In this document: positions 2,164 to 64,000 of the stretch, in pieces | Numbering within the stretch: position 1 is the first letter of the stretch | Layout of the letters: every line of letters begins with the position of its first letter | NCBI GenBank assembly: GCA_963719855.1 | Contig: CAVRDK010000004.1 | Coordinates: forward strand, 938,776 to 1,002,775 | DNA length: 64,000 nucleotides | Direction: 5' to 3' | DNA from: an uncultured beta proteobacterium | GTDB taxonomy: Bacteria; Pseudomonadota; Gammaproteobacteria; Burkholderiales; Gallionellaceae | Notes under the pieces: generated by a model | What the model saw: the letters and a program-made list of their open reading frames with translations, nothing else | The model's database searches: none | Told to the model about the DNA's origin: nothing | Made by a program: the position numbers and the translations under genes

Positions 2164-2647
2164 ATGAGTGAACCACTTGAAATTCTTCCTTGGGACGAGA
2201 ATTATTTTACCGGGATACCGGAGATGGGCGAGCAGCACAAACGTCCAGTTCATTTGGCGAATTAGCTACTGGCGTAGCCAATCAGTCTGACATTACCGAT
2301 TTGAATTATATTTTACTGAACTTGCGGAATATGCGGTGTATCATTTCAAGACTGAAGAAGATTTATGGCATCAGTTCCTTGCGGATGATTCTTGGGAAGC
2401 CGATCTCAAAATTGAGCACATTAACTTTGTGTCCGTTATGATCAGATTGGAAGATGAAGGAAACGGCAAACCGATAGGCGAAGCAATAGAGAACATCCGC
2501 TCATTTCTGACTCATTGGCTTGCGATCCACATATTGGAATCCGACAAGCGAATGGCCAAGGTTGTGTTGGCAGTGCAATTAGGAATGTTTCTGGAACAGG
2601 CCAAGCAACAGGCTAATCAGGATATGATCGTGGCGAAGGTTGTGTAA
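2164..2647 (+). pseudogene. hemerythrin-like metal-binding protein, interrupted by two frameshifts
   Basis: The N-terminus MSEPLEILPWDENYFTGIPEMGEQHK (frame 1) stops at TAG 2263-2265. The middle ELATGVANQSDITDLNYI lies in frame 3. TELAEYAVYHFKTEEDLW...FLTHWLAIHILESDKRM continues in frame 2 (ORF 2336-2647). The second shift sits at the T-run 2311-2314. Confidence 0.55.
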
Positions 2648-2652
2648 GCCAC

Positions 2653-2689
2653 CAACTGCTCATGTAACTAATAGCTACATGAACAGTTG
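2653..2689 (+). terminator. hairpin downstream of the hemerythrin-like gene (possible terminator)
   Basis: CAACTGCTCATGTA (2653-2666) pairs with TACATGAACAGTTG (2676-2689) at 13 of 14 positions. There is no clear U-tract. Confidence 0.3.
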
Positions 2690-2865
2690 TTCCTCATATC
2701 AAATGAGCATATACATAGCTCGCCAAGGAGTTAGGGTATGGAATCGCTATTTGTATTTACCCGCATTCTTGCCCTCGGTTTGCTGAACTGCTGTCAATTT
2801 ATAAAGCGTATCCCGCGTGTGTTCAGCGCCCTCCGTGGCTTCGAGTTTCGCATTATTAGGTTGAT

Positions 2866-3894
2866 ATGTCCTCCATCCAACCATTGCTGATTTTTGATCT
2901 GGACGACGAGCTTTTCGGCTTGGACGCGACCTTGGTGCGTGAATCGATCTGGTTGCCGGAACTAACTCCGGTTGAGGAAGCACCGCCTTACATCGTTGGT
3001 ATGTTCAGCCTGCGCGATCAACTCATTCCCGTTACCGACCTCAATCTGCGTTTCGGTCATCCCGCCCGTCCCTACAGCCTCAGCGATCAAGTGGTCGTGC
3101 TGGAACAGGATCAGTTGTGGATGGGGCTGATCGTCAGCGAGGTGCGCGAAGTAATTGAATTGCCGCTGGCAGCCATTCAGTCATCACCCCAGCCTGATGT
3201 GGAGACGCATCGCAACACCAATCTGGTAGCGGGTGAGGCACGGGTGGATGACGACATAGTGACGTTACTGGATGTGAGCCAACTGGTACACCAGCCGCAA
3301 AACCTGATGGCTACGGACAGGGAGCATCCCGTCAACCGCTTTTGTCCGGAGGCCACACCGGAACAACACGCGGTGTACCGTGCGCGCGCCAAGGCGTTGC
3401 TGGAGACCCTCACCGATGAGGAAGGCGCGCACCTCCCGTTGGCGGTGGTGGAACTGGACGGCGAATACTTCGGCATCGAGCTTGAGTCGGTGCAGGAGTT
3501 CTGTGAAATCACTCACCCCACCCCGATTCCCTGCTGCCCGCCACACATTCTGGGCGCCATCAGCCTGCGCGGCAATTTGTTCACCCTGCTCGACCTGCGC
3601 GTTGCGCTCAACCTGCCGCCTGCAATGCAGAGCAGCAACAAGGTGGTAATCGTCCGTGCTTCGGCCTGGGGCAGCACAAGCCTCGGCGAGCAAGTGGTAG
3701 GCGTGGCTGTGGACGAGGTGCATGACGTCGTCTATCTGCGCCAGGAGGAATTGCAGGCTGCGCCTGCGGCGTTGCATGAACAGCGCGGAACGGAAATCAA
3801 GGGAACTGTGCCTTACGCCGACAAAATGATGGTGGTATTGGATTTGCCCGCGCTATTGGCGCGGGAGGAATGGATAGTCAACGAAAGCGTTTAA
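2866..3894 (+). CDS. cheW: CheW-like coupling protein with two tandem CheW domains
   Basis: 342 aa. Domain 1 is [20 protein letters not shown]...[17 protein letters not shown]. Domain 2 is [21 protein letters not shown]...[17 protein letters not shown]. Confidence 0.85.
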
Positions 3895-3916
3895 CCAAAC
3901 TGATTGGGAGGTTGTC

Positions 3917-5368
3917 ATGTTCGCAAAACTGAAACTGAGCCAGCGCATCTTGCTGGGTTATCTGGCTCCGCTGCTGCTGCTGCTGGGAGCCATGGTGCTG
4001 GTGTTTGTCAGCCTGCAGGAGGACACGCGCGCGGCTAATGAGCACGATATTGTGCAGTCAACCATGCAAGCAGCACAAGAGATGGCTCTCGACCTGGTCA
4101 GGATGCAGCGCTCGACGCGCGGTTATCTGCTGAATAAAACCCCAGATATGCTTAAAGAGTTTCAGGACAACGAAACCGCATACAAGGTTAAATATGAATT
4201 ACTCCTGCACCAGGTGAAAGACCCGCAACAACGGGACACCCTGCTGCGCATGGGTGAGTCGATTAAAACGCTAGTCCAGCAGCAGCATATGCTGCTGGAT
4301 TTGGTGGATCAGGGCAAGGACGCGACAGCCATTGCACAATATCGGAGCGGGCAAATCCCCAGGATGGCACGCGAACTGGACGATGTGGCGAACAGCTTCC
4401 TGCAACAAGAAAATGAGATCACCAAAGGAATAGGGGAAAAGGAAGACGCAGCCATCCGCATGGTCACCAATTCGATCATCTATGGCATGTTGGGCGCCAT
4501 TGCCATGTCGGTAGCCATCGCCCTCTGGCTCGCAGCGGCGATCAGCCGCAATGTTATCGCCAGCGCCACCCAGCTTTCCGCTGCCAGCAGTGAAATTGCT
4601 GCCACCATCGCCCAGCACGAACGCACCGCCAGCCAGCAAGCGGCCGCCGTTAATGAGACTTCCTCCACCATCGATGAACTGTCGGCCTCCTCGCGCCAGT
4701 CGGCAGAACAGGCGGCAAATTCGGCGACGCTGGCGGAGCGTTCCAGTACCGTCACGGTAGAGGGCAGCGATGCCACTCAGCAAGCGGTGGATGCGATGAG
4801 CAGCCTCAAGGACAAGATTGGCGCCATGGCTGACCAGATACTGCATCTGGGCGAACAGACCGGGCAAATTGGCAATATCGCCACCCTGCTCAAGGACTTG
4901 GCCGGACAGATCAACATGCTGGCACTCAACGCGGCGGTAGAAGCCGCCCGTGCCGGCGAGCATGGCAAGGGTTTCGCCGTCGTGGCGAGCGAAATACGCA
5001 AGCTCGCCGACCAGAGCAAGAAGTCGGCGGAACAGACCGCCGTGCTGGTGACCGACATTCAGAAAGCCACCAATTCCTCGATCATGATGACTGAGGAGGG
5101 CACGCGCACTGTGACCGAGGTGACCCAACTGGTGCGGAAGGTAGCCGATCTGTTCAATAATCTGGCCAGCCTGTCGAATAGCGTCAATGAAAATGCCCAG
5201 CAGATGATGCTGAACACCAAACAGCAGTCCGCTGCTTTTTCCCAAGTGGTGCAGGCGACCAACAGCATCGCAGCCGGAGCCAAGGAGACCGTCGCCGGGA
5301 TCGGGCAGACCAAAATCGGGGTACAGAATTTGAACAATGCGGCTGAGAACCTCAAGGCGATTGTGTAA
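3917..5368 (+). CDS. methyl-accepting chemotaxis protein (CHASE3-like sensor region)
   Basis: 483 aa with two TM segments and a CHASE3-like RSTRGYLL motif. It carries the conserved signalling hairpin [43 protein letters not shown]. Confidence 0.9.
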
Positions 5369-5391
5369 TGAACCCAGATAATTCATTAGGC

Positions 5392-5437
5392 GTAGGTCGG
5401 GCTTTAGCCCGACATGTCGGGTTGAAAACCGACCTAC
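5392..5437. repeat. REP element, GTAG-headed palindrome (GTAGGTCGGGCTTTAGCCCGAC ... GGTTGAAAACCGACCTAC)
   Basis: Imperfect palindrome that starts with GTAGG and ends with CCTAC, located between the mcp gene and cheA. Confidence 0.65.
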
Positions 5438-5459
5438 AATTCTGCATTCCGCAATCAAT

Positions 5460-7805
5460 ATGATTGAAGACCCAGAACTGCGTCAGTTATTCAAGGCGGA
5501 AAGCACGGAGCATCTCGCCCGTCTTGACGACGGCTTGCTGCGCCTTGAAAAAAATTGCACTGACCAAGCGCTGCTGGAAGAGGTATTCCGCGAGGCGCAC
5601 AGCATGAAGGGCGCAGCGCGCATGTTGGAGTTGTCAAAGATCGAAACCGCCGCGCACGGTCTGGAAAGCATCCTGAACACGGCGCGCAAGGGTGAAGCAC
5701 CGCTCACGCCGGACGTGATCGAACGTATGACTATCGTGCTGCGCGATTTGCGCAAGCTGGTGCAGGAGGCGCTGATCGGAGAACCCGCCGGGCGCACAAA
5801 TACTCCTTCCCCCTCCCAGGGGGAAAGTTGGGTAACCAATGACTTGGCTGGTGTTGTTGGACAGCCAAGTCAGATGTCTATAACCAGCCGCTTGCCCCAC
5901 ACTTTGGGGCTTAGCGGAATGGCTAGTAGTTTCATTAGTAGTTCCATCAATGGGGGTAAAAGTTTAGATGGAAGTAAAAATTCTGAGAATTTGACCAGTT
6001 CAATCCCCTCCCTAGCCCTGCCGGGGGGAGGGGACAGAGGGATTGCAGCCGAGCCTTTCCGTATCGAAACTGTGCGGGTGGAGACGCGCAAGCTGGACGA
6101 TCTGCTTACCCTGGCGGGCGAACTCAGCGTGATTCAGGGACGGGCACAGCATCGGCTGTCGCTGATGGATGAGATGCTGGAACAATGGGCAATGCTGGAA
6201 CGCAGCCGCAGGAAATTTCGCTTCCTGCTGCGCAGGACGGAAACCACAGAAACCATGGCTAAGATGAGCGAAACTGTGCGCCAGATGCTGCGCGCAGATG
6301 GCGACATTGTGGCGCTGCTCGGAAGCCGGATCAAGCAAGCGCGCGATGCTTTATACGAGGACGGCGCGAGGCTGGAATCCACGGCCAACACGCTGGAGGA
6401 GCGGGTGCATGATGTCCGCCTGATGCCGCTGTCCTCCGTGTTTTCGCTATTTCCGCGCATGGTACATGATCTCGCCAAGGAGCAGGACAAGGAAGTAGAA
6501 CTGGTGATCGAAGGAGGGGAACTCAACGTGGACAAGCGCGTCCTCGAAGAAATGAAAGACCCGCTGATGCACTTGTTGCGCAATGCCATTGACCACGGCA
6601 TCGAACCGCCTGCCGAACGCGAACGGCAGGGCAAGCCTCGCGGCGGCACGCTGCGGCTGCGCGCGGTGCAGGAAAACAATAGTGTGCTGCTGGAAGTGCG
6701 CGACGATGGACGCGGCATGGATGTTGACGCAATCCGGCATGTGGCGTTGCAGCACGGGCTGAATGACGAGGCAACGCTCGCCACCATGACCCCGGCGCAA
6801 TTGCAGCAACTGATTTTTTTGCCCGGCTTCTCCACCAGCACCTTCATTACCGAGCTGTCCGGGCGCGGCGTTGGACTGGATGTGGTGCGGGTCAACGTGG
6901 AGCGTCTCAAGGGTGACATCCGCATGGAGTCCGCGCCGCATCATGGCACCATGATGCAGTTGCGCCTGCCGCTGGGTCTGTCTACCACGCGCTTGTTGCT
7001 GGTCAGTGTGGGCGACCATCGCTACGGTTTACCGATTGAATTTGTCCACACCTCGCGGCGCGTGCGCGAGGAAGATATTTTCACCCTCGAAGGTCGCCCT
7101 GCCTTCGAGTTGGACGGACAGGCGGTGATCGCTCCGCGCCTCGCCGATCTGCTGGGCTTGCCCGCCGAAAATCAGGGCGACGAAACGGTATGCATCGTGA
7201 TTCAGGTTGGCGACGAACGGCTTGGGTTGCGGGTGAATGAATTACTGGACGAAGAAGAGGTGCTGGCCAAACCGCTGGGCGCACCGTTGCAGCGGGTACG
7301 CAATGTTTCCGGCCTGACCATACTGGGTAGCGGGGAGATTTGTGCGGTGCTGAATCCTGCCGATCTGCTGCGCTCGGCGCACAAACTGGCTGCCGCGCCC
7401 GCCAAGGGCAAACTTGAGCGGTCTGGGCCGCCGGTCAAAACTTGCATCCTGCTGGTGGAAGACTCTGTGTTGGTGCGCGTCATGGAAAAACGTATCCTTG
7501 AAGATGCCGGTTATGAGATAGTCACCGCAGTTGATGGTGTGGATGCCCTCAATGCGCTGAGTAGCCGTTCCTTTGCGGCAGTCGTATCAGATATCATGAT
7601 GCCCAACATGGACGGCCTCTCCCTCACCGCCCGCATCCGCCAGGAACCGCACTACCACGATTTGCCGGTAATTCTGGTAACCTCCCTCGCCTCCGACGAG
7701 GACAAGCGGCGCGGCCTGGAAGTCGGCGCCAATGCCTATATACCCAAGCCCTCATTCGATCAGCACGTGCTGCTGGAAACTTTGCAAAGGTTGATCGTGC
7801 CATGA
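5460..7805 (+). CDS. cheA: hybrid chemotaxis histidine kinase CheA with C-terminal receiver domain
   Basis: 781 aa. Domains are Hpt (EAHSMKGAARM), HATPase_c (LLRNAIDHGIE, GRGVGLDVV), a CheW-like domain and REC (VSDIMMPNMDG). The stop overlaps the cheB start (ATGA). A 240-bp repeat-derived insert lies in the P1-P3 linker. Confidence 0.9.
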   Translation: MIEDPELRQLFKAESTEHLARLDDGLLRLEKNCTDQALLEEVFREAHSMKGAARMLELSKIETAAHGLESILNTARKGEAPLTPDVIERMTIVLRDLRKLVQEALIGEPAGRTNTPSPSQGESWVTNDLAGVVGQPSQMSITSRLPHTLGLSGMASSFISSSINGGKSLDGSKNSENLTSSIPSLALPGGGDRGIAAEPFRIETVRVETRKLDDLLTLAGELSVIQGRAQHRLSLMDEMLEQWAMLERSRRKFRFLLRRTETTETMAKMSETVRQMLRADGDIVALLGSRIKQARDALYEDGARLESTANTLEERVHDVRLMPLSSVFSLFPRMVHDLAKEQDKEVELVIEGGELNVDKRVLEEMKDPLMHLLRNAIDHGIEPPAERERQGKPRGGTLRLRAVQENNSVLLEVRDDGRGMDVDAIRHVALQHGLNDEATLATMTPAQLQQLIFLPGFSTSTFITELSGRGVGLDVVRVNVERLKGDIRMESAPHHGTMMQLRLPLGLSTTRLLLVSVGDHRYGLPIEFVHTSRRVREEDIFTLEGRPAFELDGQAVIAPRLADLLGLPAENQGDETVCIVIQVGDERLGLRVNELLDEEEVLAKPLGAPLQRVRNVSGLTILGSGEICAVLNPADLLRSAHKLAAAPAKGKLERSGPPVKTCILLVEDSVLVRVMEKRILEDAGYEIVTAVDGVDALNALSSRSFAAVVSDIMMPNMDGLSLTARIRQEPHYHDLPVILVTSLASDEDKRRGLEVGANAYIPKPSFDQHVLLETLQRLIVP
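5806..6045 (-). repeat. composite repeat inserted in frame in cheA (G/C-rich palindromes flanking two hairpin units and a 12-bp microsatellite)
   Basis: The span is 240 bp, or 80 codons. Hairpin units at 5831-5928 are the reverse complement of the AGCCAT...GGTTAT units seen at 21490, 23628, 37866 and 48047. The flanks are CCTTCCCCCTCCCAGGGGGAAAG and CAATCCCCTCCC...GGGGAGGGGACAGAGGGATTG. Confidence 0.8.
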
Positions 7806-8860
7806 TCCGGGTTCTGTTAGTAGACGATTCTCCACTCGTGCTGAACATCCTTCAACGCCTGCTGTCTCGCTCACCCGAAATCCAGGTGGTAGGCACCGCA
7901 ACCAACGGCAAGGAGGCGCTCGATCTGTTGCCCGCCTTAAATCCGGATGTGATCTGCACCGACCTGCACATGCCGGTGATGGATGGGCTGGAATTTACTC
8001 GCGAAGTAATGGCCAAGTATCCGCGCCCCATTCTGGTGGTGAGCGTCTCAGTGGAAGCGGGGTCAGCCAACGTGTTCATGCTGCTCGACGCAGGAGCGGT
8101 CGATGTTTTTCCCAAGCCACGCGCCATTCAGGACGCAGACTTTGACAAGGTAGCAGATGAACTGGCCAGCAGAATACGCATTCTGGCCGGTGTGCGGGTG
8201 ATTCACCGCAGCAATGTCATGAACGCCCCCCTTGCATTGCCGCCCACCACTTCTTCCCGCCCGCAATCCTCGCTTCGCATCATAGTAATCGGCGCTTCCA
8301 CCGGCGGCCCGCAGGCCCTGCGCGATATCCTGTCGCACTTGCCCGCCACCTTCCCGCTGCCGGTGGTGTGCGTCCAGCATATCGGCAGCAGTTTTTTGTC
8401 CGGGATGGTGGATTGGCTGGCTGATGCCTGCACACTAACGGTGCGCAAGGCAGCGCATGGTGAGACACCGCAAACGGGCGTGGTTTATTTTGCACCCGAA
8501 GATAATCATCTGGAATTTAATAGCGACGGATGTTTCCTGTTTTCCATTGCACCGCCAGTGGATGGACATCGTCCCTCGGTCACCGTCACCATGCAGGCGG
8601 CGGCGCGTTGTTTTGGTGGCGGCACAGTGGGCGTGTTGCTGACAGGAATGGGAAGCGATGGCGCCGATGGCATGGCGAGCATTGCCACAGCCGGTGGCAT
8701 CACACTCGCCCAGGACGAGGCTAGCAGCGTGGTGTACGGCATGCCTAAAGCGGCTGTAGCACTGGGTGCGGCACAGAAGATACTGCCCTTGGAACAGATC
8801 GCGCCAGCACTGGAAGCGTTGGTGAATAATCATTGCATTGTTGGCAGCAATCATGATTAG
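7802..8860 (+). CDS. cheB: protein-glutamate methylesterase CheB (REC + methylesterase)
   Basis: 352 aa with REC (CTDLHMPVMDG) and a catalytic domain (IVIGASTGGPQAL, LLTGMGSDG). Confidence 0.9.
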   Translation: MIRVLLVDDSPLVLNILQRLLSRSPEIQVVGTATNGKEALDLLPALNPDVICTDLHMPVMDGLEFTREVMAKYPRPILVVSVSVEAGSANVFMLLDAGAVDVFPKPRAIQDADFDKVADELASRIRILAGVRVIHRSNVMNAPLALPPTTSSRPQSSLRIIVIGASTGGPQALRDILSHLPATFPLPVVCVQHIGSSFLSGMVDWLADACTLTVRKAAHGETPQTGVVYFAPEDNHLEFNSDGCFLFSIAPPVDGHRPSVTVTMQAAARCFGGGTVGVLLTGMGSDGADGMASIATAGGITLAQDEASSVVYGMPKAAVALGAAQKILPLEQIAPALEALVNNHCIVGSNHD

Positions 8861-8871
8861 GAGTCCACAAC

Positions 8872-11019
8872 ATGGAAAATAACACGTCAAACGCACCAAC
8901 GGAAATCCTGATTGTTGAAGACAGTTTGGTGGAAGCCGAATTGCTCCGTCGTATTCTGGTCAAGGCAGGCTATCAGGCCAGGCTGGCAAAGGACGGCAAG
9001 GAAGGTTTGCAAGCCTTGAGCGAGCATCCCTGCGCGCTGGTGATCAGCGACATCCAGATGCCACTGATGGACGGCTACGAACTATGCCACGAGATCAAAC
9101 ACAACGAAAAATTATGGAATATTCCAGTCATCCTGGTGTCGGCTCTGTCCGAAACGGAAGACATCATCAAGGCGCTCAATGTCGGTGCCGACAGTTACCT
9201 TGCCAAGCCTTGTGTCGAAGCTAACCTGCTGGCCCGTATCCATTCCCTGCTGGTCATTCCGATCCAAAGGAACCGTTCGGAAGAACGACGTGCCGAACAA
9301 GTGGAATATAACGGCAAAAACTACACCATCACCACCGACAGCCGACAGATGCTGAACCTGCTGCTGTCGGTGTACGAGAATACCCTGTCCCAGAATCAGG
9401 AACTGGTCAGTACCCAAGCCCAGCTCAACCGTCTTAATAATTTTCTGGAGGATCAGGTGCAAAACCGCACTGCGGCACTGCAGGAAAGCGAGGCACGCTA
9501 CAGGCGTATTACCGAGGGACTCACGGATTACCTATATACGGTACGCATCGAAAACGGGCGTGCCGTGGAAACCAATCAAAGCCCAGCCTGCGTGACGGTG
9601 ACTGGGTACAAACCGGAAGATTTTTCCGCAAATCCCGACCTGTGGATACAGATGGTCGTTCCGGAGGATCGTGAATTGGTCAAGGAGCATGTGATCCAGA
9701 TTTTGGCGGGGAATGATGTCTCACCCATGGAGCATCGCATCATCCGGAAAGACGGGGAAATACGCTGGGTGAGCGACACGACCATCCTGTTTAAGAACGC
9801 CTCCGAAAAATTGCTGTCCTATGACGGTGTGATTAAGGACATCACCGAGCACAAGCAGGCGGAAATCGCGCTCAGCCACTCCAACCGCGCTCTTGCTACC
9901 GTAAGTAAGGTAAACCGCAAATTGGTCTATATCACCGACGAGGATGAGCTTTTGCAGGCAATCTGCCAAATCATCGTGGAACACGGTTACCGGATGGCAT
10001 CGATAGGCTATGCACAACAGGACGCGGACAAGACCATCAGGATCATTGCGTATGCCGGTCATGACGGAGGTTATCTGGATGCCCTGCAACTCACTTGGGC
10101 GGAGAGCGAACGCGGCATGGGGCCGAGTGGACGCGCCATCCGCAGCGGCGCGACACAGGTGTGCCAGAACATCGCCAGCGATCCGCGTTATTTGCCTTGG
10201 TTCGATGCGGCGGTGCAACAAGGTTATGCGTCCAGCATTGCGCTGCCGCTGCTGAATGCGGACAACATTGTGTCCGCCGTATTGAACGTATATTCCGATG
10301 AAGCGGATGCCTTCATTCCCAACGAAATTGAACTGTTGGAAGAAATAGCGGGGGATTTGGCATTCGGGCTGCGCACGTTGCATGTCCGTCACGAACGCGA
10401 TCTGGCGGAGGATAAAAACCAGCATTATCTCGCGCAATTGAAAGAGAGTCTGGATGATACTGTGCGGGCGATTGCCGACATCGTTGAAATGCGCGATCCT
10501 TACACTTCAGGTCACCAGACCAAGGTGGCCGATCTGGCCGCAGCCATTGCCAGGCAAATGGGATTGCCGGATGAACAGGTGCAGGCTATTCATCTCGCGA
10601 GCATCGTGCATGACTTGGGAAAAATCAAAATCCCGGCGGAAATACTGAGCAAGCCGGGAAGGCTTAGCGACATCGAGTTCCAGTTTATCAAAGCCCATCC
10701 GCAAGCGGGTTATGACATTTTGAAGGGAGTTCATTTCCCTTGGTCTATCGCGCAGATGGTGTTACAGCACCATGAACGAATCGATGGGTCGGGCTATCCG
10801 CAAGCACTCAAGGGCGATGCCATTATGCTCGAAGCGCGTATTCTCAGTGTGGCGGACGTGGTCGAGGCTATGTCCTCGCACCGCCCCTACCGCCCCGCGT
10901 TGGGTACTGAGGCAGCACTGGAAGAGATTACCAAACATCGCGGCATTTATTTCGACCCGCAAGTGGTGGACGCCTGCCTGATCCTGTTCAGGGGAAATGG
11001 ATTTGCTTTCAAGGCATGA
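8872..11019 (+). CDS. response regulator with REC-PAS-GAF-HD-GYP architecture (predicted c-di-GMP phosphodiesterase)
   Basis: 715 aa. It has REC (ISDIQMPLMDG), PAS (EARYRRITEGLTDYLY...), a GAF-like region, and HD-GYP (IVHDLGKIKIP ... LQHHERIDGSGYP). Confidence 0.85.
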   Translation: MENNTSNAPTEILIVEDSLVEAELLRRILVKAGYQARLAKDGKEGLQALSEHPCALVISDIQMPLMDGYELCHEIKHNEKLWNIPVILVSALSETEDIIKALNVGADSYLAKPCVEANLLARIHSLLVIPIQRNRSEERRAEQVEYNGKNYTITTDSRQMLNLLLSVYENTLSQNQELVSTQAQLNRLNNFLEDQVQNRTAALQESEARYRRITEGLTDYLYTVRIENGRAVETNQSPACVTVTGYKPEDFSANPDLWIQMVVPEDRELVKEHVIQILAGNDVSPMEHRIIRKDGEIRWVSDTTILFKNASEKLLSYDGVIKDITEHKQAEIALSHSNRALATVSKVNRKLVYITDEDELLQAICQIIVEHGYRMASIGYAQQDADKTIRIIAYAGHDGGYLDALQLTWAESERGMGPSGRAIRSGATQVCQNIASDPRYLPWFDAAVQQGYASSIALPLLNADNIVSAVLNVYSDEADAFIPNEIELLEEIAGDLAFGLRTLHVRHERDLAEDKNQHYLAQLKESLDDTVRAIADIVEMRDPYTSGHQTKVADLAAAIARQMGLPDEQVQAIHLASIVHDLGKIKIPAEILSKPGRLSDIEFQFIKAHPQAGYDILKGVHFPWSIAQMVLQHHERIDGSGYPQALKGDAIMLEARILSVADVVEAMSSHRPYRPALGTEAALEEITKHRGIYFDPQVVDACLILFRGNGFAFKA

Positions 11020-11031
11020 CCTTCTCCGTCC

Positions 11032-12444
11032 ATGAACAACACGACTCAACTTGACGAATTTAAGCAACTGCTCGCGCAGAGAATTGGCCTGCGCGTTCCA
11101 CCCGATGCACACGAGCGCTTTGTCGGCATGCTGCATGAGCGTGCTGCACGCCTGGGCTACGCCACACTGGAAGAATACCAAATTTTTCTGGTTGGCGATG
11201 AGGCAGCCGGGGAATGGGAGGAGTTCGCCCGTGTTTTGACCAGCGGCGAGACATTTTTCTTCCGCGATCAAGGGCAATTCGACCTGTTACGCTTGCGCCT
11301 GCTCCCCGAACTGATAGCACGGCATCGCAATGACAAAACCCTGCGTCTGTGGAGTGCGGGCTGCGCCAGCGGCGAGGAGGCTTATTCCTTGTCCATGCTG
11401 ATTGACATGCTGCTGCCGGAACACAGTGATTGGAATGTACTTATACTCGGTACTGACATTGATTCCATGTCGATTGCCAAGGCGCGGCATGGGCGTTATG
11501 GGCAGTGGTCGTTCCGCATGATTCCAGCAGCATTGCAACAGCGTTATTTTCATGAGGAGGGTAACGAGTGGGTGCTAGATGAGCGCATACGCCGCATGGT
11601 GAAGTTCCGTGTTATCAATCTGGTCAGTGAGACGTTTCCAAATTCCGGATCGGAACTGCATGATATGGATTTGATCCTGTGCCGCAATGTATTCATCTAC
11701 TTCGACTCCGCCGCCGTAAAAGCCATCGTGACGAAATTTGCTGCCACCCTTTCCGAGGGCGGTTATCTGATGACAGGACATACTGAACTTATCGGCCAGA
11801 GGGTGCTGGGACTGGAACACAGACTTTTTGCCGAGGGCGTAGTGTATCAACGACATAATTGCCTGCCTGCTTGTGTTGCACCACCTCCTGTCCCGTCAAT
11901 TGCTGCCGAGTGGATTGCGCCTTTCTTGCCGGTGCATACCTTTCCTGTCGACGAGGCTCGAAGCGAGGAGATGCAGGTATTGCCGCAAGCAAGGAACCAT
12001 GACAAAGTGCTCGGGACTTCGGCACGGACATATGCCGACAGGGGTGAGTATGAGCTGGCGGAGCAGATGTGTCGTGAATCGATAGCAACAGACCCGTTGG
12101 CGGCAGCCCCTTATTTTTTATTGGCACAATTATCCCAACTCAAGGGGGACTTCGAACAAGCAAAGGGATGCTTGAACAAAGCCATTTACAACGATCAACG
12201 GTTTGTGGCTGCGTACCTTGAATTGGCGGCTCTACATGAACGCTCTGGGGATATGTCGCGAGCGCTGGCCATGCGGCATGCCGCTTTGAGGATCGTTCGC
12301 ACCATGCCGAACGACGAGCAGATCGAGCAATATGAAAGAACAGCGGGGGAACTGGCGCAATGGCTCGCACAGTTTGATTCGTTGGCGAATAACTACGGCA
12401 GTGCTGACGGGAATCATGTCAGGAGCATGCAACATGGACAATAA
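11032..12444 (+). CDS. cheR: chemotaxis methyltransferase CheR fused to C-terminal TPR repeats
   Basis: 470 aa with CheR motifs (FFFRDQGQF, LRLWSAGCASGEEAYS, LCRNVFIYF). The C-terminus has TPR-like repeats (ADRGEYELAEQMCRESI..., QLKGDFEQAKGCLNKAI...). Confidence 0.85.
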   Translation: MNNTTQLDEFKQLLAQRIGLRVPPDAHERFVGMLHERAARLGYATLEEYQIFLVGDEAAGEWEEFARVLTSGETFFFRDQGQFDLLRLRLLPELIARHRNDKTLRLWSAGCASGEEAYSLSMLIDMLLPEHSDWNVLILGTDIDSMSIAKARHGRYGQWSFRMIPAALQQRYFHEEGNEWVLDERIRRMVKFRVINLVSETFPNSGSELHDMDLILCRNVFIYFDSAAVKAIVTKFAATLSEGGYLMTGHTELIGQRVLGLEHRLFAEGVVYQRHNCLPACVAPPPVPSIAAEWIAPFLPVHTFPVDEARSEEMQVLPQARNHDKVLGTSARTYADRGEYELAEQMCRESIATDPLAAAPYFLLAQLSQLKGDFEQAKGCLNKAIYNDQRFVAAYLELAALHERSGDMSRALAMRHAALRIVRTMPNDEQIEQYERTAGELAQWLAQFDSLANNYGSADGNHVRSMQHGQ

Positions 12445-12540
12445 TTCAGTTGGGTAAATACCCGGCCGGGGGACTCCGTTAGGTTTGACCGTTCCTGCGG
12501 TCATAAATAAAGAGCAACGTTAAAATTTGGCGACATTGTT

Positions 12541-12647
12541 CCCTCCCCCTTGTAGGGGGAGGGTTAGGGTGGGGGTAGAATCCAAGCATGAGCGTAGTCA
12601 AAATTTGTACCCCCATCCCAGCCTTCCCCCTATCAGGGGGAAGGAGG
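12541..12647. repeat. G/C-rich palindromic repeat (CCCTCCCCCTTGTAGGGGGAGGGTTAGGGTGGGGGTA ... TACCCCCATCCCAGCCTTCCCCCTATCAGGGGGAAGGAGG)
   Basis: Long inverted repeat between cheR and ald. The two 60-75-aa ORFs across it are repeat artefacts. Confidence 0.65.
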
Positions 12648-12793
12648 AAAACCAGCCGCCTTGGGCGGCTCACGGTTTTATCTGCCCTTTTGAGGGGTTC
12701 ACCCAATAAGCCTCCAGCTTTGCCGGAGGTAATTTAACTCCATCGGCGCACAGGCTGAGTCTCCAACATAATCCGAGTGAATAGAGGAAATAA

Positions 12794-36508: not shown

Positions 36509-37795
36509 TTGAACAAGAAGAATTTAAACGGGAGCCATGTCAAGCAGCGCCAACTGATTGTTGCGCTCCTCACAGCCGCAAGTTGTGCGGCAGGGGTTTA
36601 CCTGTTTTATGTGCCATTCCACGGTTGGCTGCTTGATGCTGTAGGCACGTCGGCCAAGATCGCCGACACGACGGGAACCTTCGTCATCGTCCTGTTCAGT
36701 TTTGTGGTCAACAGCCTGGTTTCCATGGCGATTTTCAAGGACATCTCGCTGGGGATGCGCGCTGTCCAACAGCAACTCAGCCAGAAGATATCCGGTGACG
36801 AAGCTATTCTTAACAGCGCAGCCAACGACCTTGGTGATCTGCCTGCACTGACCAAGTTGCTCAATGAGCAATTGCATGCCATCACCGTGGAAACAGAGCG
36901 TTCCGCATACTCCATCATGGAGCGCTTGCAGGCCATCGATGGAGTCATCAACGAACTGATGTCCACCGTCACTGCCAGCGCCCAGGAATCGGAAGTCATG
37001 ATCCAGGCTGGCGAAAAAAGCATCGGATCGAACGTGGATCTGATCGAAAACCTCAACCTGTACATTCACGAGCGCGTTACCGAAACCGATGCCGACCGCG
37101 CAAGCATATCCATCGTGGTGCAACAGGCAAAATCGCTGTCTTCCCTGGTGGAACTGATCAAAAATATTTCTTCGCAGACCAACCTGCTCGCACTCAACGC
37201 GGCTATCGAAGCGGCGCGCGCCGGCGATGTGGGACGAGGGTTCGCGGTGGTGGCGGACGAGGTGCGCAAGCTGTCCGGTGAAACCGACCATGCTGTATCT
37301 AAAATACAGGAAGGTATTGGCAACGTAGCCAAAACCATAGAGGAACAGTTCCGCAACAAGCTCGAAAACTCCAAAATCCAGCAACAGAGAGAAGTGCTGA
37401 CGAATTTTTCCAAACACCTCGACAGCATGGGCAGCAACTACCACAAGCTGATGAAGCGCGATGAAGAAACGCTTGCCAACCTCAGTAACACCAGTCAAAA
37501 ACTGTCTTCGATGTTCATGGAGGTGCTGGCGAGCATCCAGTTTCAGGATGTCACGCGGCAACAGATCGAGCAAGTGCAGAACGCGCTTACCCGCCTCGAC
37601 ACGCATGTGGTGCAGATGGTGGAAATGATGCGCAGCAAAGACTTCTCCAATGCGGCTTCGATCAAGGAGCACATCGACCAGATATACGAAGGCTATGTCA
37701 TGGATAAGCAGCGCGATGTCCACGCTTCTGCGATGGGCGGAACTTCCCAGACTGGCGGTGCGGCAGCTGCGCCGCAGAAAATCGAGTTGTTCTAG
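36509..37795 (+). CDS. methyl-accepting chemotaxis protein (membrane-anchored, no periplasmic domain)
   Basis: 428 aa with two N-terminal TM helices and the signalling hairpin [41 protein letters not shown] start. Confidence 0.85.
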
Positions 37796-39974: not shown

Positions 39975-41105
39975 AACTCGAATCTTTCAAGGCGGGCGTA
40001 TGGCGGCAGCAATACCAATACAAAAGTTTTCAGCCAACGCTGGTTAATCAGTTGTGGACGTGGGAAGACCCCGTCATTAACACGCTACTCGAACAAGCGA
40101 CCAAGGCACTGGGCGAGTTGAATGCTTTTTCGCTGATTGTGCCGGACATTGATTTGTTCATTGAGATGCACGTAGTAAAGGAAGCGCAAACTTCCAGCCG
40201 CATCGAGGGAACGCAGACCGGCATTGAAGATGCTTTGATGCCGGAAGAACAAATTCAGCCGGAGAAACGCGATGACTGGCGCGAGGTGCGCAATTACATC
40301 GAGGCGGTGAATGCTGCTGTTGCCGAGTTGAAAAATCTACCACTATCAAACCGTTTGTTGAAGCGAGCTCATGAGATTCTGATGCAGGGTGTGCGAGGAG
40401 AACATAAGTTGCCGGGGGAATTTCGCACCAGTCAGAAACTGGATCGGGGGTTCGAGTTTGACCGATGCGGTATTTATTCCCTCGCACCATCAGGATGTAC
40501 CGGACTTGATGGGTGATCTGGAAAAATTCTGGCATAACGAAGAAATCACTGTCCCGCATCTGGTACGCATTGCCATCAGCCATTATCAGTTTGAGACAAT
40601 TCACCCGTTTTGCGACGGCAATGGTCGTATTGGTCGTCTGTTGATTCCTTTGTACCTGATGAGTCATGGCTTGTTAGCAAAGCCTTCGCTTTACTTATCG
40701 GATTTCTTTGAGCGTAACCGAACCAGCTATTACGATGCATTGATGCGGGTGCGCCAAACCGGCGACTTGATTCACTGGATTCGATTTTTTCTAAAGGGCG
40801 TGGAAGAGACATCCACCAAGGGGCGCGACACGTTTCAGAAAATTCTTGCTCTGCGCACCGAGGTGGAGCAAAAAATTTTGGGGCTGGGGAAGCGCGCGCC
40901 GAATGCGCGGCGAGCACTCAACCTGCTTTACCAAAGGCCGGTAATTGTGGCATCCCATCTGGAGCGCGAATTGGAAATCAGTACGCCTGCGGCGAATGCC
41001 CTGATTCGTGACTTGGGTAATTTGGGTATCGTGACCGAGATATCCGGGCGACAAAAGGGACGGGTATATGCGTTTGAACGTTACCTTAATCTGTTCGTAA
41101 GTTAA
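39971..41105 (+). pseudogene. Fic family protein (Fic_N + Fic + C-terminal wHTH), single frameshift
   Basis: The inhibitory-helix motif SSRIEG lies in the N-terminal part and the active site HPFCDGNGRIGRLL in the second ORF. The frames join at GEFRTSQ/NWIGGSS. An extra A sits in the A-run 40436-40438. Confidence 0.75.
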
Positions 41106-41308
41106 CGGAAATCAATTTGCGTTAACTTACGAAGGAGCTAAGGAAACGTTGGATCGAGAGTAAAAATACCGATTTGTTTATCCAACATATTGACTAATAT
41201 AAAATAAATATCAGAAAAGGCCTTTGAATCTTACCTTGAGCAAATGCTGACCGAGGTGCAATGCTCTTAGAGCGCACCATAACCTACGCGAACAATCATG
41301 AATAACTC

Positions 41309-44119
41309 ATGCCATTAAGCTGGAACGAAATCCGCAACCGTGCCCACGAATTCTCCAAGCGCTGGGAACATGAAACCTCGGAAGATGCCGAGGCCAAACC
41401 ATTCTGGACGGAGTTCTTCAACGTCTTCGGCATAGACCGCAAGCGCGTCGCCAGCTTCGAGGAGCCGGTCAAAAAACTCGGCGACAAGCAAGGCTATATC
41501 GACCTATTCTGGAAAGGCATGCTGCTGGTCGAGCACAAGTCGCGCGGCAAGGATTTGGACAAAGCCTACACACAGGCGCTCGATTACTTCCCCGGCATCA
41601 AAGAACGCGACCTGCCAAAATACGTGCTGGTATCCGACTTCGCCCGCTTTCGTCTGTACGACCTGGAAGAAGGCACGCAACAAGAATTCAAACTCGCCGA
41701 TCTGCACAAGCGCATCAAGCATTTCGCCTTTATCGCTGGTTACCGCACACAAACCATCGCGCCGCAAAACCCGGTCAACATCAAAGCCGCCGAGCGCATG
41801 GGCAAGCTGCACGATGCGCTCAAGGCGGCGGGCTATGCAGGCCATCCGCTCGAAGTGCTGCTGGTGCGCCTGCTGTTCTGCCTGTTCGCGGAAGACACCG
41901 GCATCTTCCAGCCCGCCAGCGCCTTCCGTGCCTGGATAGAAGAGCGCACCGCGCCCGATGGCTCCGATCTCGGGCCGCAGCTCGCGCAATTATTCCAGGT
42001 GCTCAACACGCCGGAAAACCGCCGCGCGAAAATGCTGGACGAACAGAGCGCCGCCTTCCCCTACGTCAACGGCAAACTGTTCGAGGAAATGCTGCCCATC
42101 GCCTCCTTCGATCTCGCCATGCGCGAAGCCCTGCTCGATTGCTGCGCGCTCGACTGGAGCGCAATCTCGCCCGCCATCTTTGGCGCGCTGTTCCAGAGCA
42201 TCATGGATGCCAAGGCGCGACGCAACATCGGCGCGCACTACACCAGCGAAGAAAATATCCTCAAACTCATTCAGCCGCTGTTCTTGGACAGCCTATGGGA
42301 AGAATTTAACCGCGTAAAAAGTAACAAGAACAAGCTGTTCGAGTTCCATAAAAAACTGCGCACGCTGACCTTCTTCGACCCCGCCTGCGGCTGCGGCAAC
42401 TTCCTGGTGATCGCCTACCGCGAGCTGCGCAAGCTGGAACTGGACGTGTTGCGCACCGTGCATGAAGGTCCCGGCTCGCGCTTCCTCGACATCCATCAGG
42501 AAATCAGCGTAGACGTAGATCAGTTCTACGGCATCGAGATCGAAGAATTCCCGGCGCAAATCGCGCAAGTCGCAATGTGGCTGATGGATCACCAGATGAA
42601 CGTGCGCGTGTCCGAAGAATTCGGCATGTACTTCGCGCGCATCCCGCTCAAGACCTCGCCGCACATTGTTAACGGCAACGCGCTTAGGATTGAATGGAAC
42701 GATGTGCTGCCAGCGGAGCGGGCAAGTTATGTGTTGGGAAATCCGCCGTTCATAGGTAAACAGATTCAAAACACCCAACAAAAAGACGACATGGAGCGCA
42801 TTTTCCACAGCATGAAAGGTGCGGGCGTGCTGGATTACGTCGCTGCATGGTATGTAAAAGCAGCGCGGTATATGAATACCGTTCGCCCTGAGCTTGTCGA
42901 AGGGCTGCGCGCCGCTCATGCTTCGACAAGCTCAGCACGAACGGAAATTCGTTGTGCTTTCGTCTCCACCAACTCCATCACCCAAGGTGAACAGGTGGGC
43001 GTGCTGTGGAGTTGGCTGCTCGCGCAAGGTATCCACATCCATTTCGCTCATCGCACTTTTCAGTGGAGCAACGAAGCAAAAGGTATGGCGGCGGTGCATT
43101 GCGTCATCATCGGCTTCGGTACGTTCGACGTGGAGAAAAAAGCAATTTACGAATATGCGGACATCTGCAGCGAATCGCACGCCGTCGTCGCACGCAACAT
43201 CAATCCCTATCTGGTGGACGCGCCAAACGTGAGCCTGGCTAATCGCCGCCAGCCTATTTCGCCAGTGCCGGAAATCGTATTTGGCAGTATGCCCAATGAT
43301 GGAGGGCATTTGCTGCTGACCGATGCTGAAAAGCACGAGTTACTCTCAAAGGAGCCAGCCGCAGGAAAATATGTCCGCCCATTCATGAGCGCGAAAGAAT
43401 TTCTCAACAACGAACAACGCTGGTGCTTATGGCTCGTGGATATTGCTCCGCATGAACTGCGGCAACTGCCGGAAATTGCGCGGCGCGTGCAGGCGGTAAA
43501 ACAACTGCGCGAAGCCAGTGATCGTCCGACCACGCGCGAACTGGCGGCATTCCCAACTTTGTTTGGGGAGAATCGCCAGCCAACATCGCACTACGTTCTT
43601 GTGCCAAGGCACTCATCCGAGAACCGTTCCTATATTCCTTGCGGTTTTTTCGATGAAAATTACGTTGCCGCAGATAGCTGCCTTGCCATTCCCAACGCCA
43701 CGCTCTATCACTTCGGCATCCTCACTTCCATCATGCACATGGCGTGGGTGCGCTTCACCTGCGGACGACTAGAAAGCCGTTACCGCTATTCGGCGGGCAT
43801 CGTCTATAACAACTACCCGTGGCCTGACGAGCCGACAGACAAACAGCGCGCAACCGTAGAAACCGCCGCACAAGCCGTGCTGGATGCCCGCGCACAATTT
43901 CCGCAAAGCTCGCTCGCCGACCTCTACGACCCGCTCACCATGCCGCCCCCACTGGTCAAAGCCCATCATGCCCTCGACCGCGCCGTGGACACCTGCTACC
44001 GCAAAGCGGCCTTCACAAACGATGCACAGCGCGTGGAATTCCTGTTCGAGCGCTACCAGCAACTCACCAGCCTGTTGCCGACGGATAAATCCGCCAAGGC
44101 TCAAAAGAAAAGGCCGTGA
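41309..44119 (+). CDS. MmeI-family type IIL restriction-modification enzyme (endonuclease + N6-adenine methyltransferase + TRD)
   Basis: 936 aa, collinear from recollection with MmeI: MPLSWNEIRNRAHEFSKRWE, nuclease IDLFW...LLVEHKSRGKDLDKAYTQALDYF, FFDPACGCGNFLV, NPPF motif VLGNPPFIGK, IRCAFVSTNSITQGEQV and GRLESRYRYSAGIVYNNYPWP. Confidence 0.9.
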   Translation: MPLSWNEIRNRAHEFSKRWEHETSEDAEAKPFWTEFFNVFGIDRKRVASFEEPVKKLGDKQGYIDLFWKGMLLVEHKSRGKDLDKAYTQALDYFPGIKERDLPKYVLVSDFARFRLYDLEEGTQQEFKLADLHKRIKHFAFIAGYRTQTIAPQNPVNIKAAERMGKLHDALKAAGYAGHPLEVLLVRLLFCLFAEDTGIFQPASAFRAWIEERTAPDGSDLGPQLAQLFQVLNTPENRRAKMLDEQSAAFPYVNGKLFEEMLPIASFDLAMREALLDCCALDWSAISPAIFGALFQSIMDAKARRNIGAHYTSEENILKLIQPLFLDSLWEEFNRVKSNKNKLFEFHKKLRTLTFFDPACGCGNFLVIAYRELRKLELDVLRTVHEGPGSRFLDIHQEISVDVDQFYGIEIEEFPAQIAQVAMWLMDHQMNVRVSEEFGMYFARIPLKTSPHIVNGNALRIEWNDVLPAERASYVLGNPPFIGKQIQNTQQKDDMERIFHSMKGAGVLDYVAAWYVKAARYMNTVRPELVEGLRAAHASTSSARTEIRCAFVSTNSITQGEQVGVLWSWLLAQGIHIHFAHRTFQWSNEAKGMAAVHCVIIGFGTFDVEKKAIYEYADICSESHAVVARNINPYLVDAPNVSLANRRQPISPVPEIVFGSMPNDGGHLLLTDAEKHELLSKEPAAGKYVRPFMSAKEFLNNEQRWCLWLVDIAPHELRQLPEIARRVQAVKQLREASDRPTTRELAAFPTLFGENRQPTSHYVLVPRHSSENRSYIPCGFFDENYVAADSCLAIPNATLYHFGILTSIMHMAWVRFTCGRLESRYRYSAGIVYNNYPWPDEPTDKQRATVETAAQAVLDARAQFPQSSLADLYDPLTMPPPLVKAHHALDRAVDTCYRKAAFTNDAQRVEFLFERYQQLTSLLPTDKSAKAQKKRP
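42879..42944. repeat. 66-bp palindromic REP inserted in frame in the MmeI-like gene
   Basis: CCGTTCGCCCTGAGCTTGTCGAAG...CTTCGACAAGCTCAGCACGAACGG. It adds 22 codons (VRPELVEGLRAAHASTSSART) where MmeI itself reads ...TNANIRCAF. Confidence 0.75.
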
Positions 44120-58252: not shown

Positions 58253-58288
58253 AATTTGTCCAGTTTCGTTTATGAGCACTTCTAAAGT

Positions 58289-59345: not shown

Positions 59346-59353
<8 letters not shown>
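58289..59353 (-). CDS. response regulator with HD-GYP domain (RpfG-like c-di-GMP phosphodiesterase)
   Basis: 354 aa with REC plus HD-GYP (SPMHDIGKIGI ... LNHHERWDGSGYP). There is a good RBS (GAGGAAA). The start overlaps the end of the kinase gene. Confidence 0.9.

Positions 59354-64000
<4,647 letters not shown>

Follow-up and report, generated by a model that had tools for sequence, protein, structure and literature searches.

The window, meaning the whole 64-kb stretch of DNA that was analysed, comes from an uncultured Gallionellaceae bacterium and carries at 2866-12444 six tightly spaced + strand open reading frames that encode a chemosensory core set (MCP, CheA, CheW, CheR and CheB) together with an HD-GYP response regulator. 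The gene order is CheW-CheW, CHASE3 chemoreceptor, CheA-REC, CheB, REC-PAS-GAF-HD-GYP and CheR-TPR, and the cluster is bordered by traces of two further genes:

2164..2647, + strand: hemerythrin-like gene, broken by one or more frameshifts, just upstream of the cluster (three-frame translations)
2648..2865, + strand: AT-rich intergenic region, presumed operon promoter and leader, a 218-nt gap before the first che gene
2866..3894, + strand: coupling protein of 342 aa with two CheW domains (Pfam CheW matched in two stretches, E 1.7e-57)
3917..5368, + strand: methyl-accepting chemoreceptor with TM1, periplasmic CHASE3, TM2 and signalling domain (Pfam)
5460..7805, + strand: CheA-REC hybrid histidine kinase with Hpt, H-kinase_dim, HATPase_c, CheW and REC domains (Pfam)
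7802..8860, + strand: CheB methylesterase with N-terminal REC (Pfam CheB_methylest E 8.6e-62, plus REC)
8872..11019, + strand: response regulator REC-PAS-GAF-HD-GYP, 715 aa, predicted c-di-GMP phosphodiesterase (Pfam HD_5 E 2.5e-42)
11032..12444, + strand: CheR methyltransferase with C-terminal TPR repeats (Pfam CheR E 8.9e-51, several TPR families)
12434..12457, + strand: remnant of a lost seventh gene, comprising ribosome-binding site and start, with the mini-ORF MDNNSVG-stop (alignment with relatives)
12458..12793, strand not assigned: deletion scar or intergenic spacer holding REP-like hairpins at two places, 12544-12560 and 12625-12641

The gaps between the six genes are, in order, 22, 91, -4, 11 and 12 nt, the third being a 4-nt overlap of the cheB start with the cheA stop, and GC content is even across them (0.53-0.61). 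Our ORF check placed the frames at exactly the coordinates of the original prediction, which had described a contiguous same-strand set lacking CheY, CheZ, flagellar and pilus genes; none of these, and no GGDEF gene, occurs within the whole 64-kb window either. A Pfam profile search agreed with its domain calls for all six proteins, with scores for the core set far above cut-off, and the catalytic and phospho-acceptor motifs read from the translations are all intact. The double CheW is 61-89% identical to its counterparts in related loci. The receptor has a CHASE3 domain (46.1 bits, cut-off 28), an MCPsignal domain (118 bits) and a hairpin at residue 348 of 483, with no HAMP domain detected. 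In CheA, the Hpt histidine (in EAHSMKGAA) and the Asp and Lys residues of the REC domain are present, and Pfam gave no match to a P2 domain; CheB scored 375 bits against its NCBIfam subfamily (cut-off 342). The kilobase containing the intergenic region at 2648..2865 has a GC of 0.45, and the promoter of the che operon would be expected in that region, where a scan for the sigma-70 consensus found no match.

The HD-GYP regulator matches the Pfam domains REC, PAS_3, GAF_2 and HD_5/HD, the HD_5 match spanning positions 2-170 of the 170 in the profile. Its REC domain has the acidic pocket E16/D17, the phospho-acceptor D60 and K112-P113, with S90 or S93 likely at the conserved Ser/Thr position. The HD-GYP motifs, which were predicted to be intact, indeed read HDLGK and HHERIDGSGYP. 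Among 26 orthologues (49-100% identity), E16, D17, D60, K112 and P113 are invariant, as are H548, H580, D581, K584, H609, H633, H634, G641-Y642-P643 and D662, and by this measure the catalytic and phospho-acceptor residues are evidently under purifying selection. Alignment with PmGH (4MCW) shows seven of the eight metal ligands conserved; the third-metal Glu (E185) is replaced by a Tyr that is invariant among the orthologues, so that the metal site is probably binuclear. The c-di-GMP-contacting motifs of HD-GYP enzymes, KPG and RxY[K/R] (Galperin & Chou), are also present (SKPGRL and HRPYRP).

These motifs do not decide the substrate, because the best PDB sequence match of the regulator is V-cGAP3 (E 2.3e-42, versus 4.6e-37 for PmGH), a 3'3'-cGAMP-specific HD-GYP enzyme that yet also reads RPYR. 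The regulator could accordingly be the output of the pathway and still act mainly by other means than lowering c-di-GMP, either through 3'3'-cGAMP hydrolysis or by binding other proteins in a phosphorylation-dependent manner. Some HD-GYP proteins cleave cGAMP or work by protein-protein contacts (Galperin & Chou), and some RpfG-family proteins bind GGDEF or PilZ proteins. We consider this unlikely, since the RPYR of the regulator is of the c-di-GMP type and not the cGAMP-linked RxxQ/RxxN, and the invariance of all catalytic residues in the orthologues argues against a purely scaffolding role. We infer c-di-GMP as the substrate.

To place the cluster among its relatives, we recovered orthologous clusters from Gallionellaceae, Methylococcaceae and Burkholderiales assemblies (49-82% identity). 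The HD-GYP gene adjoins cheB in every one of them, lying between cheB and cheR in L001, L002, L014, L015, L017, L019, L020, L021, L022, L105 and L106 and, in the single exception (L104), directly after cheB but not between cheB and cheR. The identities of the six proteins drop together across the loci, which points to co-inheritance. A recent, unrelated insertion of the regulator gene into a che operon had been named beforehand as an outcome that would overturn the original prediction; it fails because the place beside cheB is kept in all orthologous clusters, and on these comparisons the regulator is evidently a member of the cluster. An exact look-up of the window's HD-GYP protein returned no contig, and context was taken from relatives and from the cluster member P0121. 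A tblastn search of the regulator against plasmid records gave only distant Deinococcus-type matches with no useful annotated context. A metagenome scan by orthologue alignment and generic HD-GYP peptide patterns gave 80 loci, almost all of them PAS/GAF-HD-GYP genes beside classical kinases, with only L085 in a che cluster, of a different family. Since the scan yielded mostly such ordinary HD-GYP genes, the census rests on 12 distinct loci and not on a large sample.

The conserved arrangement also bears on the phosphodonor. The regulator might be phosphorylated by another kinase, or by acetyl phosphate only, in which case its position in the che cluster would be irrelevant to its donor; the window does encode a second hybrid kinase system, which includes a REC-HD-GYP of its own (57398-63961), and orphan kinases abound in such genomes (PMC3770913). 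We nonetheless regard an outside donor as very improbable, given that synteny is kept across two proteobacterial classes with unrelated flanking genes, that the HD-GYP gene starts 11 nt past the cheB stop and cheR 12 nt past the HD-GYP stop, that the cluster has no single-domain CheY and the regulator and CheB are its only separate REC proteins, and that the REC of the window's other REC-HD-GYP is just 28% identical to that of the regulator. Phosphotransfer would instead come from the CheA of the cluster.

Downstream sequence could be read in 12 distinct clusters, and 10 of them have a seventh gene just 3' of cheR. It encodes REC-PAS-GGDEF-hemerythrin in eight, a hybrid kinase in one and a cut-off REC gene in one. 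Between the seventh-gene regulators and the HD-GYP regulator, REC identity is 67-81%, and these RECs have 41% identity to CheA-REC and 28% to CheB-REC; together with the low identity to the window's other REC-HD-GYP, this pattern argues for a single phosphodonor shared by both regulators. The seventh-gene proteins of L001 and L014, the two sequences read, have a canonical GGDEF motif, an RxxD I-site and Asn/Asp guanine-binding residues that we take to be those of ordinary c-di-GMP cyclases. These canonical-looking partners support c-di-GMP as the currency of the module and count further against a different nucleotide as the target of the hydrolase. The prediction of an HD-GYP phosphodiesterase (PDE) rather than a diguanylate cyclase as output therefore stands for the window and for L020, a six-gene, PDE-only version in a Burkholderiales MAG at 49% identity, but not for the family, in which eight of the 12 clusters carry the cyclase after cheR. 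The PDE-only wiring is real in the window, and it reflects a recent loss in the window's lineage.

The trace of this loss is preserved. The first four codons of the seventh gene survive at 12434-12445 (ATGGACAATAAT), and the window aligns with its relatives through AGGAG...ATGGACAATAAT, after which the frame that opens with MDNN runs on in the relatives to encode either REC-PAS-GGDEF-hemerythrin or the hybrid kinase. By blastn, homology to seven loci stops at window positions 12445-12448. A tblastn search of the scar at 12458..12793 found no trace of the cyclase; positions 12539-12646 resemble the Gallionellaceae-type locus L006 (80%, in both orientations). A regular-expression search located three copies of the REP-like hairpin, the two in the scar and one at 5808-5824, within the linker-coding region of cheA. 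An alanine dehydrogenase gene follows the scar. We rejected an assembly artefact as the reason for the missing cyclase, as an independent assembly of a near-identical strain (L103) has the identical junction. Judged by these alignments, the window strain has deleted its seventh gene recently.

Hemerythrin accompanies the module repeatedly, as a fusion to the cyclase in eight loci, as a stand-alone gene downstream in L104 and as a broken gene upstream in the window. The pieces of the window's gene lie in different frames (N-terminal W..TGI..EQHK versus HF..EE...H...D); after frame correction the reconstructed protein reaches 28.7 bits against Pfam Hemerythrin (cut-off 25.3), and its 103-aa ORF alone has no Pfam match. 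We rejected an origin of the fragment by relocation from the lost cyclase gene, since it shows only ~30% similarity to the cyclase's hemerythrin domain. We consider it peripheral, and its tie to the che cluster is uncertain.

The scar at the seventh-gene position with its REP-like elements, the further such element within the cheA linker and the adjacent frameshifted hemerythrin gene could together be taken as signs of decay, with the genes of the window strain no longer selected as a pathway after the cyclase was lost and without a coherent output. This seems to us quite unlikely. All six genes retain their full length and their catalytic motifs, the near-identical strain in the second assembly has the same intact genes beside the same junction, and the insert in cheA sits in a variable linker with the frame preserved. 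Moreover, the PDE-only wiring is viable, because the Burkholderiales MAG retains it at such a distance.

We next consider how the six-gene cluster relates to known systems. The cluster has proxy features tied to the ACF class (PMC3447774, PMC10782961): a CheA with C-terminal REC and without P2, a multidomain regulator, a neighbourhood free of flagellar and pilus genes, and CheR-TPR, itself a marker of ACF-type clusters (PMC3447774). NCBIfam gave only generic matches to the CheA, below equivalog cut-offs, and by the proxy features the cluster fits the broader ACF / CheR-TPR type. Wsp sensu stricto is defined by wspA-wspF synteny (MCP, CheW, CheR, CheW, CheA-REC, CheB) with WspR (REC-GGDEF) or WspH (a hybrid kinase), one or the other of which was present in 794 of 794 surveyed Wsp clusters (PMC8552884). 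The window cluster departs from this synteny, and its only regulator is the REC-PAS-GAF-HD-GYP protein. Similarly to Pseudomonas Wsp, it is a non-motility operon with one receptor, two CheW domains, CheR-TPR, CheA-REC, CheB and a dedicated multidomain regulator predicted to act on c-di-GMP, and the choice of cyclase or hybrid kinase as extra regulator in the relatives mirrors the split between WspR and Burkholderia WspH. The label "Wsp-like" thus applies loosely, at the level of the ACF / CheR-TPR type; the gene order differs (W-W, MCP, A, B, RR, R, against A, B, C, D, E, F, R in Wsp), the two CheW domains form a single protein, CHASE3 takes the place of a four-helix bundle as sensor, and the regulator within the operon combines HD-GYP with PAS and GAF.

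REC-controlled HD-GYP enzymes, including ones with sensory domains between REC and HD-GYP, are known from the RpfC/RpfG, RpfX and RpfY families (Galperin & Chou), where the partner is a classical or hybrid sensor kinase; the predicted partner here is a CheA array that adapts by methylation. Among REC-PAS-HD-GYP proteins only DVU2933 has been tested, and the combined REC-PAS-GAF-HD-GYP architecture is unstudied (Galperin & Chou). Chemosensory clusters that likewise pair CheR-TPR with a multidomain regulator were catalogued by Munoz-Martinez et al. in 2012 and already include uncharacterised REC-EAL regulators and one REC-HD regulator, the 'REC - HDc metal dependent phosphohydrolase' of Desulfatibacillum alkenivorans AK-01 (PMC3447774). 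The AK-01 entry, also uncharacterised, was classed among the protein phosphatases without being identified as a c-di-GMP enzyme; unlike the window family, it lacks PAS and GAF domains and comes with no description of a paired cyclase. The original table of ACF regulators (Wuichet & Zhulin 2010) aside, our literature search, in line with the original prediction, turned up no chemosensory pathway with HD-GYP output that has been characterised experimentally. Hemerythrin serves as an oxygen or redox sensor joined to c-di-GMP enzymes in Vibrio cholerae Bhr-DGC (PMC9388753) and Ferrovum Bhr-HD-GYP (Galperin & Chou). The seventh gene of the relatives resembles these in bearing the domain and differs in carrying it C-terminally on a REC-PAS-GGDEF regulator within a che operon; the window keeps only the broken stand-alone gene.

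Collectively, the data favour, with a probability of roughly 0.6, an intact non-motility pathway of the ACF / CheR-TPR type whose HD-GYP output lowers c-di-GMP, ancestrally paired with a cyclase and PDE-only here. The CHASE3 receptor, double CheW and CheA-REC would assemble an array that adapts through methylation by CheR-TPR and CheB, and CheA would pass phosphoryl groups to the REC of the regulator, which, further gated by its PAS and GAF domains, would turn on c-di-GMP hydrolysis, so that receptor activation would lower c-di-GMP. A precedent is the RpfG family, in which PDE activity requires phosphorylation of REC; against the proposal, two full-length Desulfovibrio vulgaris proteins with REC-PAS or REC-GAF-like HD-GYP architecture were inactive unless truncated (Galperin & Chou). 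Activation rather than inhibition is what we infer for the window's regulator, although near-identical RECs on a synthase and a hydrolase mean that the sign of phospho-control cannot be deduced for each enzyme. In the ancestral and still commonest form of the module, the same kinase would also feed REC-PAS-GGDEF-hemerythrin through its near-identical REC, giving a synthase and a hydrolase that oppose each other, with oxygen, iron or redox state as the probable gating cue. The window strain would be a natural PDE-only derivative of this form. We advance only tentatively, at somewhat less than even odds, the fuller version of this proposal, namely that the array drives a PAS-GAF-gated HD-GYP hydrolase and a PAS-gated, hemerythrin-coupled cyclase as an adapting push-pull switch tuned to oxygen and iron gradients, with the window strain as a natural PDE-only knockout.

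To our knowledge, Wsp is the sole well-studied chemosensory pathway acting on c-di-GMP, and it raises the messenger. A conserved module with an embedded c-di-GMP-lowering regulator would be a different design, more so where a cyclase is fed as well, and adaptation by methylation would then extend to second-messenger control in both directions. It suggests how iron- and methane-oxidising bacteria might link oxygen, iron and redox cues to attachment versus motility. Practical value will be limited until a cultivable carrier and enzymology are at hand, and the naturally occurring versions of the module, in which the PDE is joined by a cyclase, joined by a hybrid kinase or alone, offer a ready experimental system. 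Gallionellaceae and methanotrophs inhabit oxygen and iron gradients.

ORF calls resolve the chemosensory cluster at 2866-12444 into six genes on the + strand, separated from 5' to 3' by 22, 91, -4, 11, and 12 nt and bordered by an AT-rich 218-nt gap upstream and a 349-nt gap downstream, with GC content level along the whole cluster. Their Pfam domain content is:

2866-3894, +, two CheW domains
3917-5368, +, CHASE3 and MCPsignal (receptor)
5460-7805, +, Hpt, dimerisation, HATPase_c, CheW, and REC, no P2 (CheA)
7802-8860, +, REC and CheB methylesterase (CheB)
8872-11019, +, REC, PAS_3, GAF_2, and HD_5/HD (the HD-GYP regulator)
11032-12444, +, CheR and TPR (CheR)

In translation, the Hpt histidine and the REC-domain residues of CheA are both intact, the receptor has two hydrophobic segments, one on each side of CHASE3, and the regulator carries HDLGK and HHERIDGSGYP motifs together with REC residues E16/D17, D60, and K112-P113. 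No HAMP domain was detected in the receptor, and the 64-kb window lacks genes for CheY, CheZ, GGDEF proteins, flagella, and pili. The Pfam, ORF, and motif checks agree in all details with the gene set, domains, motifs, and layout described in the original prediction.

When 26 regulator orthologues are aligned, none departs from the REC phospho-acceptor residues or from the metal and GYP residues of the HD-GYP domain. Sequence alignment with the Persephonella PmGH structure retains seven of the eight metal ligands, the third-metal-site Glu being replaced by a Tyr that is likewise invariant among orthologues, and the c-di-GMP-contacting KPG and RxY[K/R] motifs are both present. Because the best PDB match is V-cGAP3, which is cGAMP-specific, we only infer that c-di-GMP is the substrate, a choice favored by the canonical cyclase paired with the regulator in relatives. 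Few of the best matches to the regulator come with a source name; Gallionella-type proteins are among them. The pyruvate dehydrogenase E1 of the window is 82-85% identical to proteins of Gallionellaceae MAGs, Ferrigenium, Ferriphaselus, and Sideroxydans, and exact protein matches lie on an NCBI/ENA contig of 1.5 Mb.

To place the regulator in its gene context, orthologues with 49-82% identity were followed to their contigs. The gene sits between cheB and cheR in loci L001 (a Methylococcaceae MAG), L002 (an uncultured betaproteobacterium), L014, L015/L016, L017/L018, L019, L020 (a Burkholderiales MAG), L021, L022, L105, and L106, and directly 3' of cheB in L104, where the order is Wsp-like, with cheR-TPR first and a receptor with a four-helix bundle. 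A recent, unrelated insertion of the regulator gene into a che operon is thus not what the comparison reveals, as the place beside cheB is kept in all orthologous clusters traced. The identity of all six proteins drops in parallel from locus to locus, and the flanking genes vary among loci, indicating that the cluster moves as one unit.

Small, selfish-looking genes appear to invade the operon: L014, the closest long relative, has a gene for a 119-aa 23S_rRNA_IVP (Pfam) protein inserted between cheA and cheB (8541-8900), and L020 has a DUF559/MTES_1575 gene between the receptor gene and cheA. In the L002 MAG, the HD-GYP regulator is split into two overlapping frames (12613-12629), through a frameshift or else an error in the long-read assembly.

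The relatives commonly carry a further regulator gene just after cheR. Among 12 distinct clusters with readable sequence 3' of cheR, this seventh gene is present in 10 and absent in two (the lineage of the window and L020); in eight of the 12 it encodes a REC-PAS-GGDEF-hemerythrin protein and starts at or overlapping the cheR stop. The full seventh-gene proteins of L001 and L014 have GGDEF, an RxxD site, and Asn/Asp, read here, by comparison with PleD-type cyclases, as canonical c-di-GMP synthase residues, and by these residues the cyclase of both loci looks canonical. In L022 (regulator 79% identical), the seventh gene (6472-8946) instead encodes a hybrid kinase, REC-PAS-HisKA-HATPase-REC, whose N-terminal ~250 residues share 66% identity with the L014 cyclase regulator; the output domain has been swapped in place. 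In L106 (81%), the closest relative with data, the seventh gene is cut off and carries a REC of this kind as well.

The REC of the HD-GYP regulator is 67-71% identical to that of the cyclase and 69-75% identical to that of the hybrid kinase, compared with 41% to the CheA REC, 28% to the CheB REC, and 28% to the other REC-HD-GYP protein of the window. Partner specificity is set by this domain, and paralogy this close argues for a single CheA as the phosphoryl donor of both regulators. We propose that CheA, controlled by the receptor array, would phosphorylate CheB to bring about adaptation and the HD-GYP regulator to produce the output; in most relatives, the regulator with cyclase or kinase domains would be a further target. 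If the regulator behaves like the RpfG family, in which activity depends on REC phosphorylation, phosphorylation would raise its hydrolysis, and PAS and GAF may act as additional gates. The seven-gene form would then apply one input to two opposing enzymes, which would have to respond in opposite directions or be kept apart by accessory sensors, one enzyme having GAF and the other hemerythrin.

In the lineage of the window, the seventh gene has been lost. Seven related loci are homologous to the window at the DNA level through cheR, and the homology ends at 12445-12448; alignment with relatives shows that the window retains the AGGAG ribosome-binding site and ATGGACAATAAT. Relatives read MDNN and go on into REC, but the window departs from them and reaches a stop after seven codons. 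No cyclase remnant is detectable in the scar at 12458-12793. The loss is real, because the junction between cheR and the alanine dehydrogenase gene recurs in a near-identical strain assembled independently (Logan), and recent, because relatives at 81% still carry the gene. The scar contains two of three copies of a GC-rich, REP-like hairpin with the consensus CC(T/C)TCCCCCT..(C)AGGGGGA(A/G)GG:

5808-5824, hairpin in frame in the part of cheA that codes for the variable P1-P3 linker, encoding ..PSPSQGES..
12544-12560, scar hairpin of the form CCTTCCCCCT..CAGGGGGAAGG
12625-12641, scar hairpin of the same form

The scar element has 80% matches, one in each orientation, to the Gallionellaceae-type locus L006, and by this resemblance looks like a REP-type repeat of the lineage.

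The claim that a phosphodiesterase replaces the cyclase holds for the strain of the window, but only through this recent deletion. The description of the cluster as Wsp-like is apt for how it would work in outline but not for membership: the definition of Wsp, which 794 clusters fit, calls for wspA-F synteny together with WspR or WspH (PMC8552884), and the present cluster departs from it in the order of the genes, the format of CheW, the sensor domain, and the regulator. By its gene content, the cluster fits the broader ACF / CheR-TPR group, whose 2012 catalogue includes REC fused to GGDEF, EAL, kinases, and others, as well as one REC-HDc regulator from Desulfatibacillum alkenivorans, placed under phosphatases (PMC3447774). 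Reviews of c-di-GMP sensing and HD-GYP proteins make no mention of a chemosensory pathway with an HD-GYP output, and full-text literature searches returned none. The module is real, intact, and conserved, and is not a new category; the paired, opposing outputs at the family level are a more interesting object than the phosphodiesterase-only strain, and the alternation of cyclase and hybrid kinase (L022) as seventh gene parallels the WspR/WspH split.

Genes for c-di-GMP phosphodiesterases were also noted in three unrelated chemosensory clusters. In L008 (a Treponema MAG), CheB and a hybrid kinase with REC-PAS and Hpt precede REC-HD-GYP; in L010 (a Methylobacter MAG), the series CheR, CheW, two MCPs, CheA, CheB, and a hybrid kinase (REC-GAF-PAS, 1457 aa) ends with REC-EAL; and L085 has CHASE3-HAMP-MCP, CheA, CheB, REC, REC-GAF-kinase, and a protein with four PAS domains and HD-GYP without REC.

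Hemerythrin accompanies the module in three ways: as a fusion with the cyclase (eight loci), as a stand-alone gene 3' of the regulator (L104), and as a gene at 2164-2647 (+) in the window, 218 nt 5' of the cluster and split among reading frames by one or more frameshifts. With the frame of the last reconstructed by hand, its translation scores 28.7 bits and so reaches the Hemerythrin threshold of Pfam; the break could mark a pseudogene or come from a sequencing error. Multidomain hemerythrins of Gallionellaceae sit among chemotaxis/sensing gene clusters, and oxygen sensing has been proposed (Emerson et al., PMC3770913).

The remaining window genes are housekeeping genes, an orphan methyl-accepting chemotaxis protein (36509-37795, +; MCPsignal only, 428 aa) with housekeeping neighbors and no che genes nearby, a Fic/DOC family protein and, after it, a complete restriction-modification enzyme of the MmeI type (40389-44119, +; 936 aa, five of five MmeI Pfam domains), and a second signaling cluster (57398-63961, -). 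The latter is a classical kinase-driven HD-GYP system, in which a 1136-aa protein with about eight PAS domains is followed by HisKA-HATPase-REC, two overlapping ORFs that may be one frameshift-split gene, together with:

58289-59353, -, REC-HD-GYP
57398-58279, -, REC-PAS
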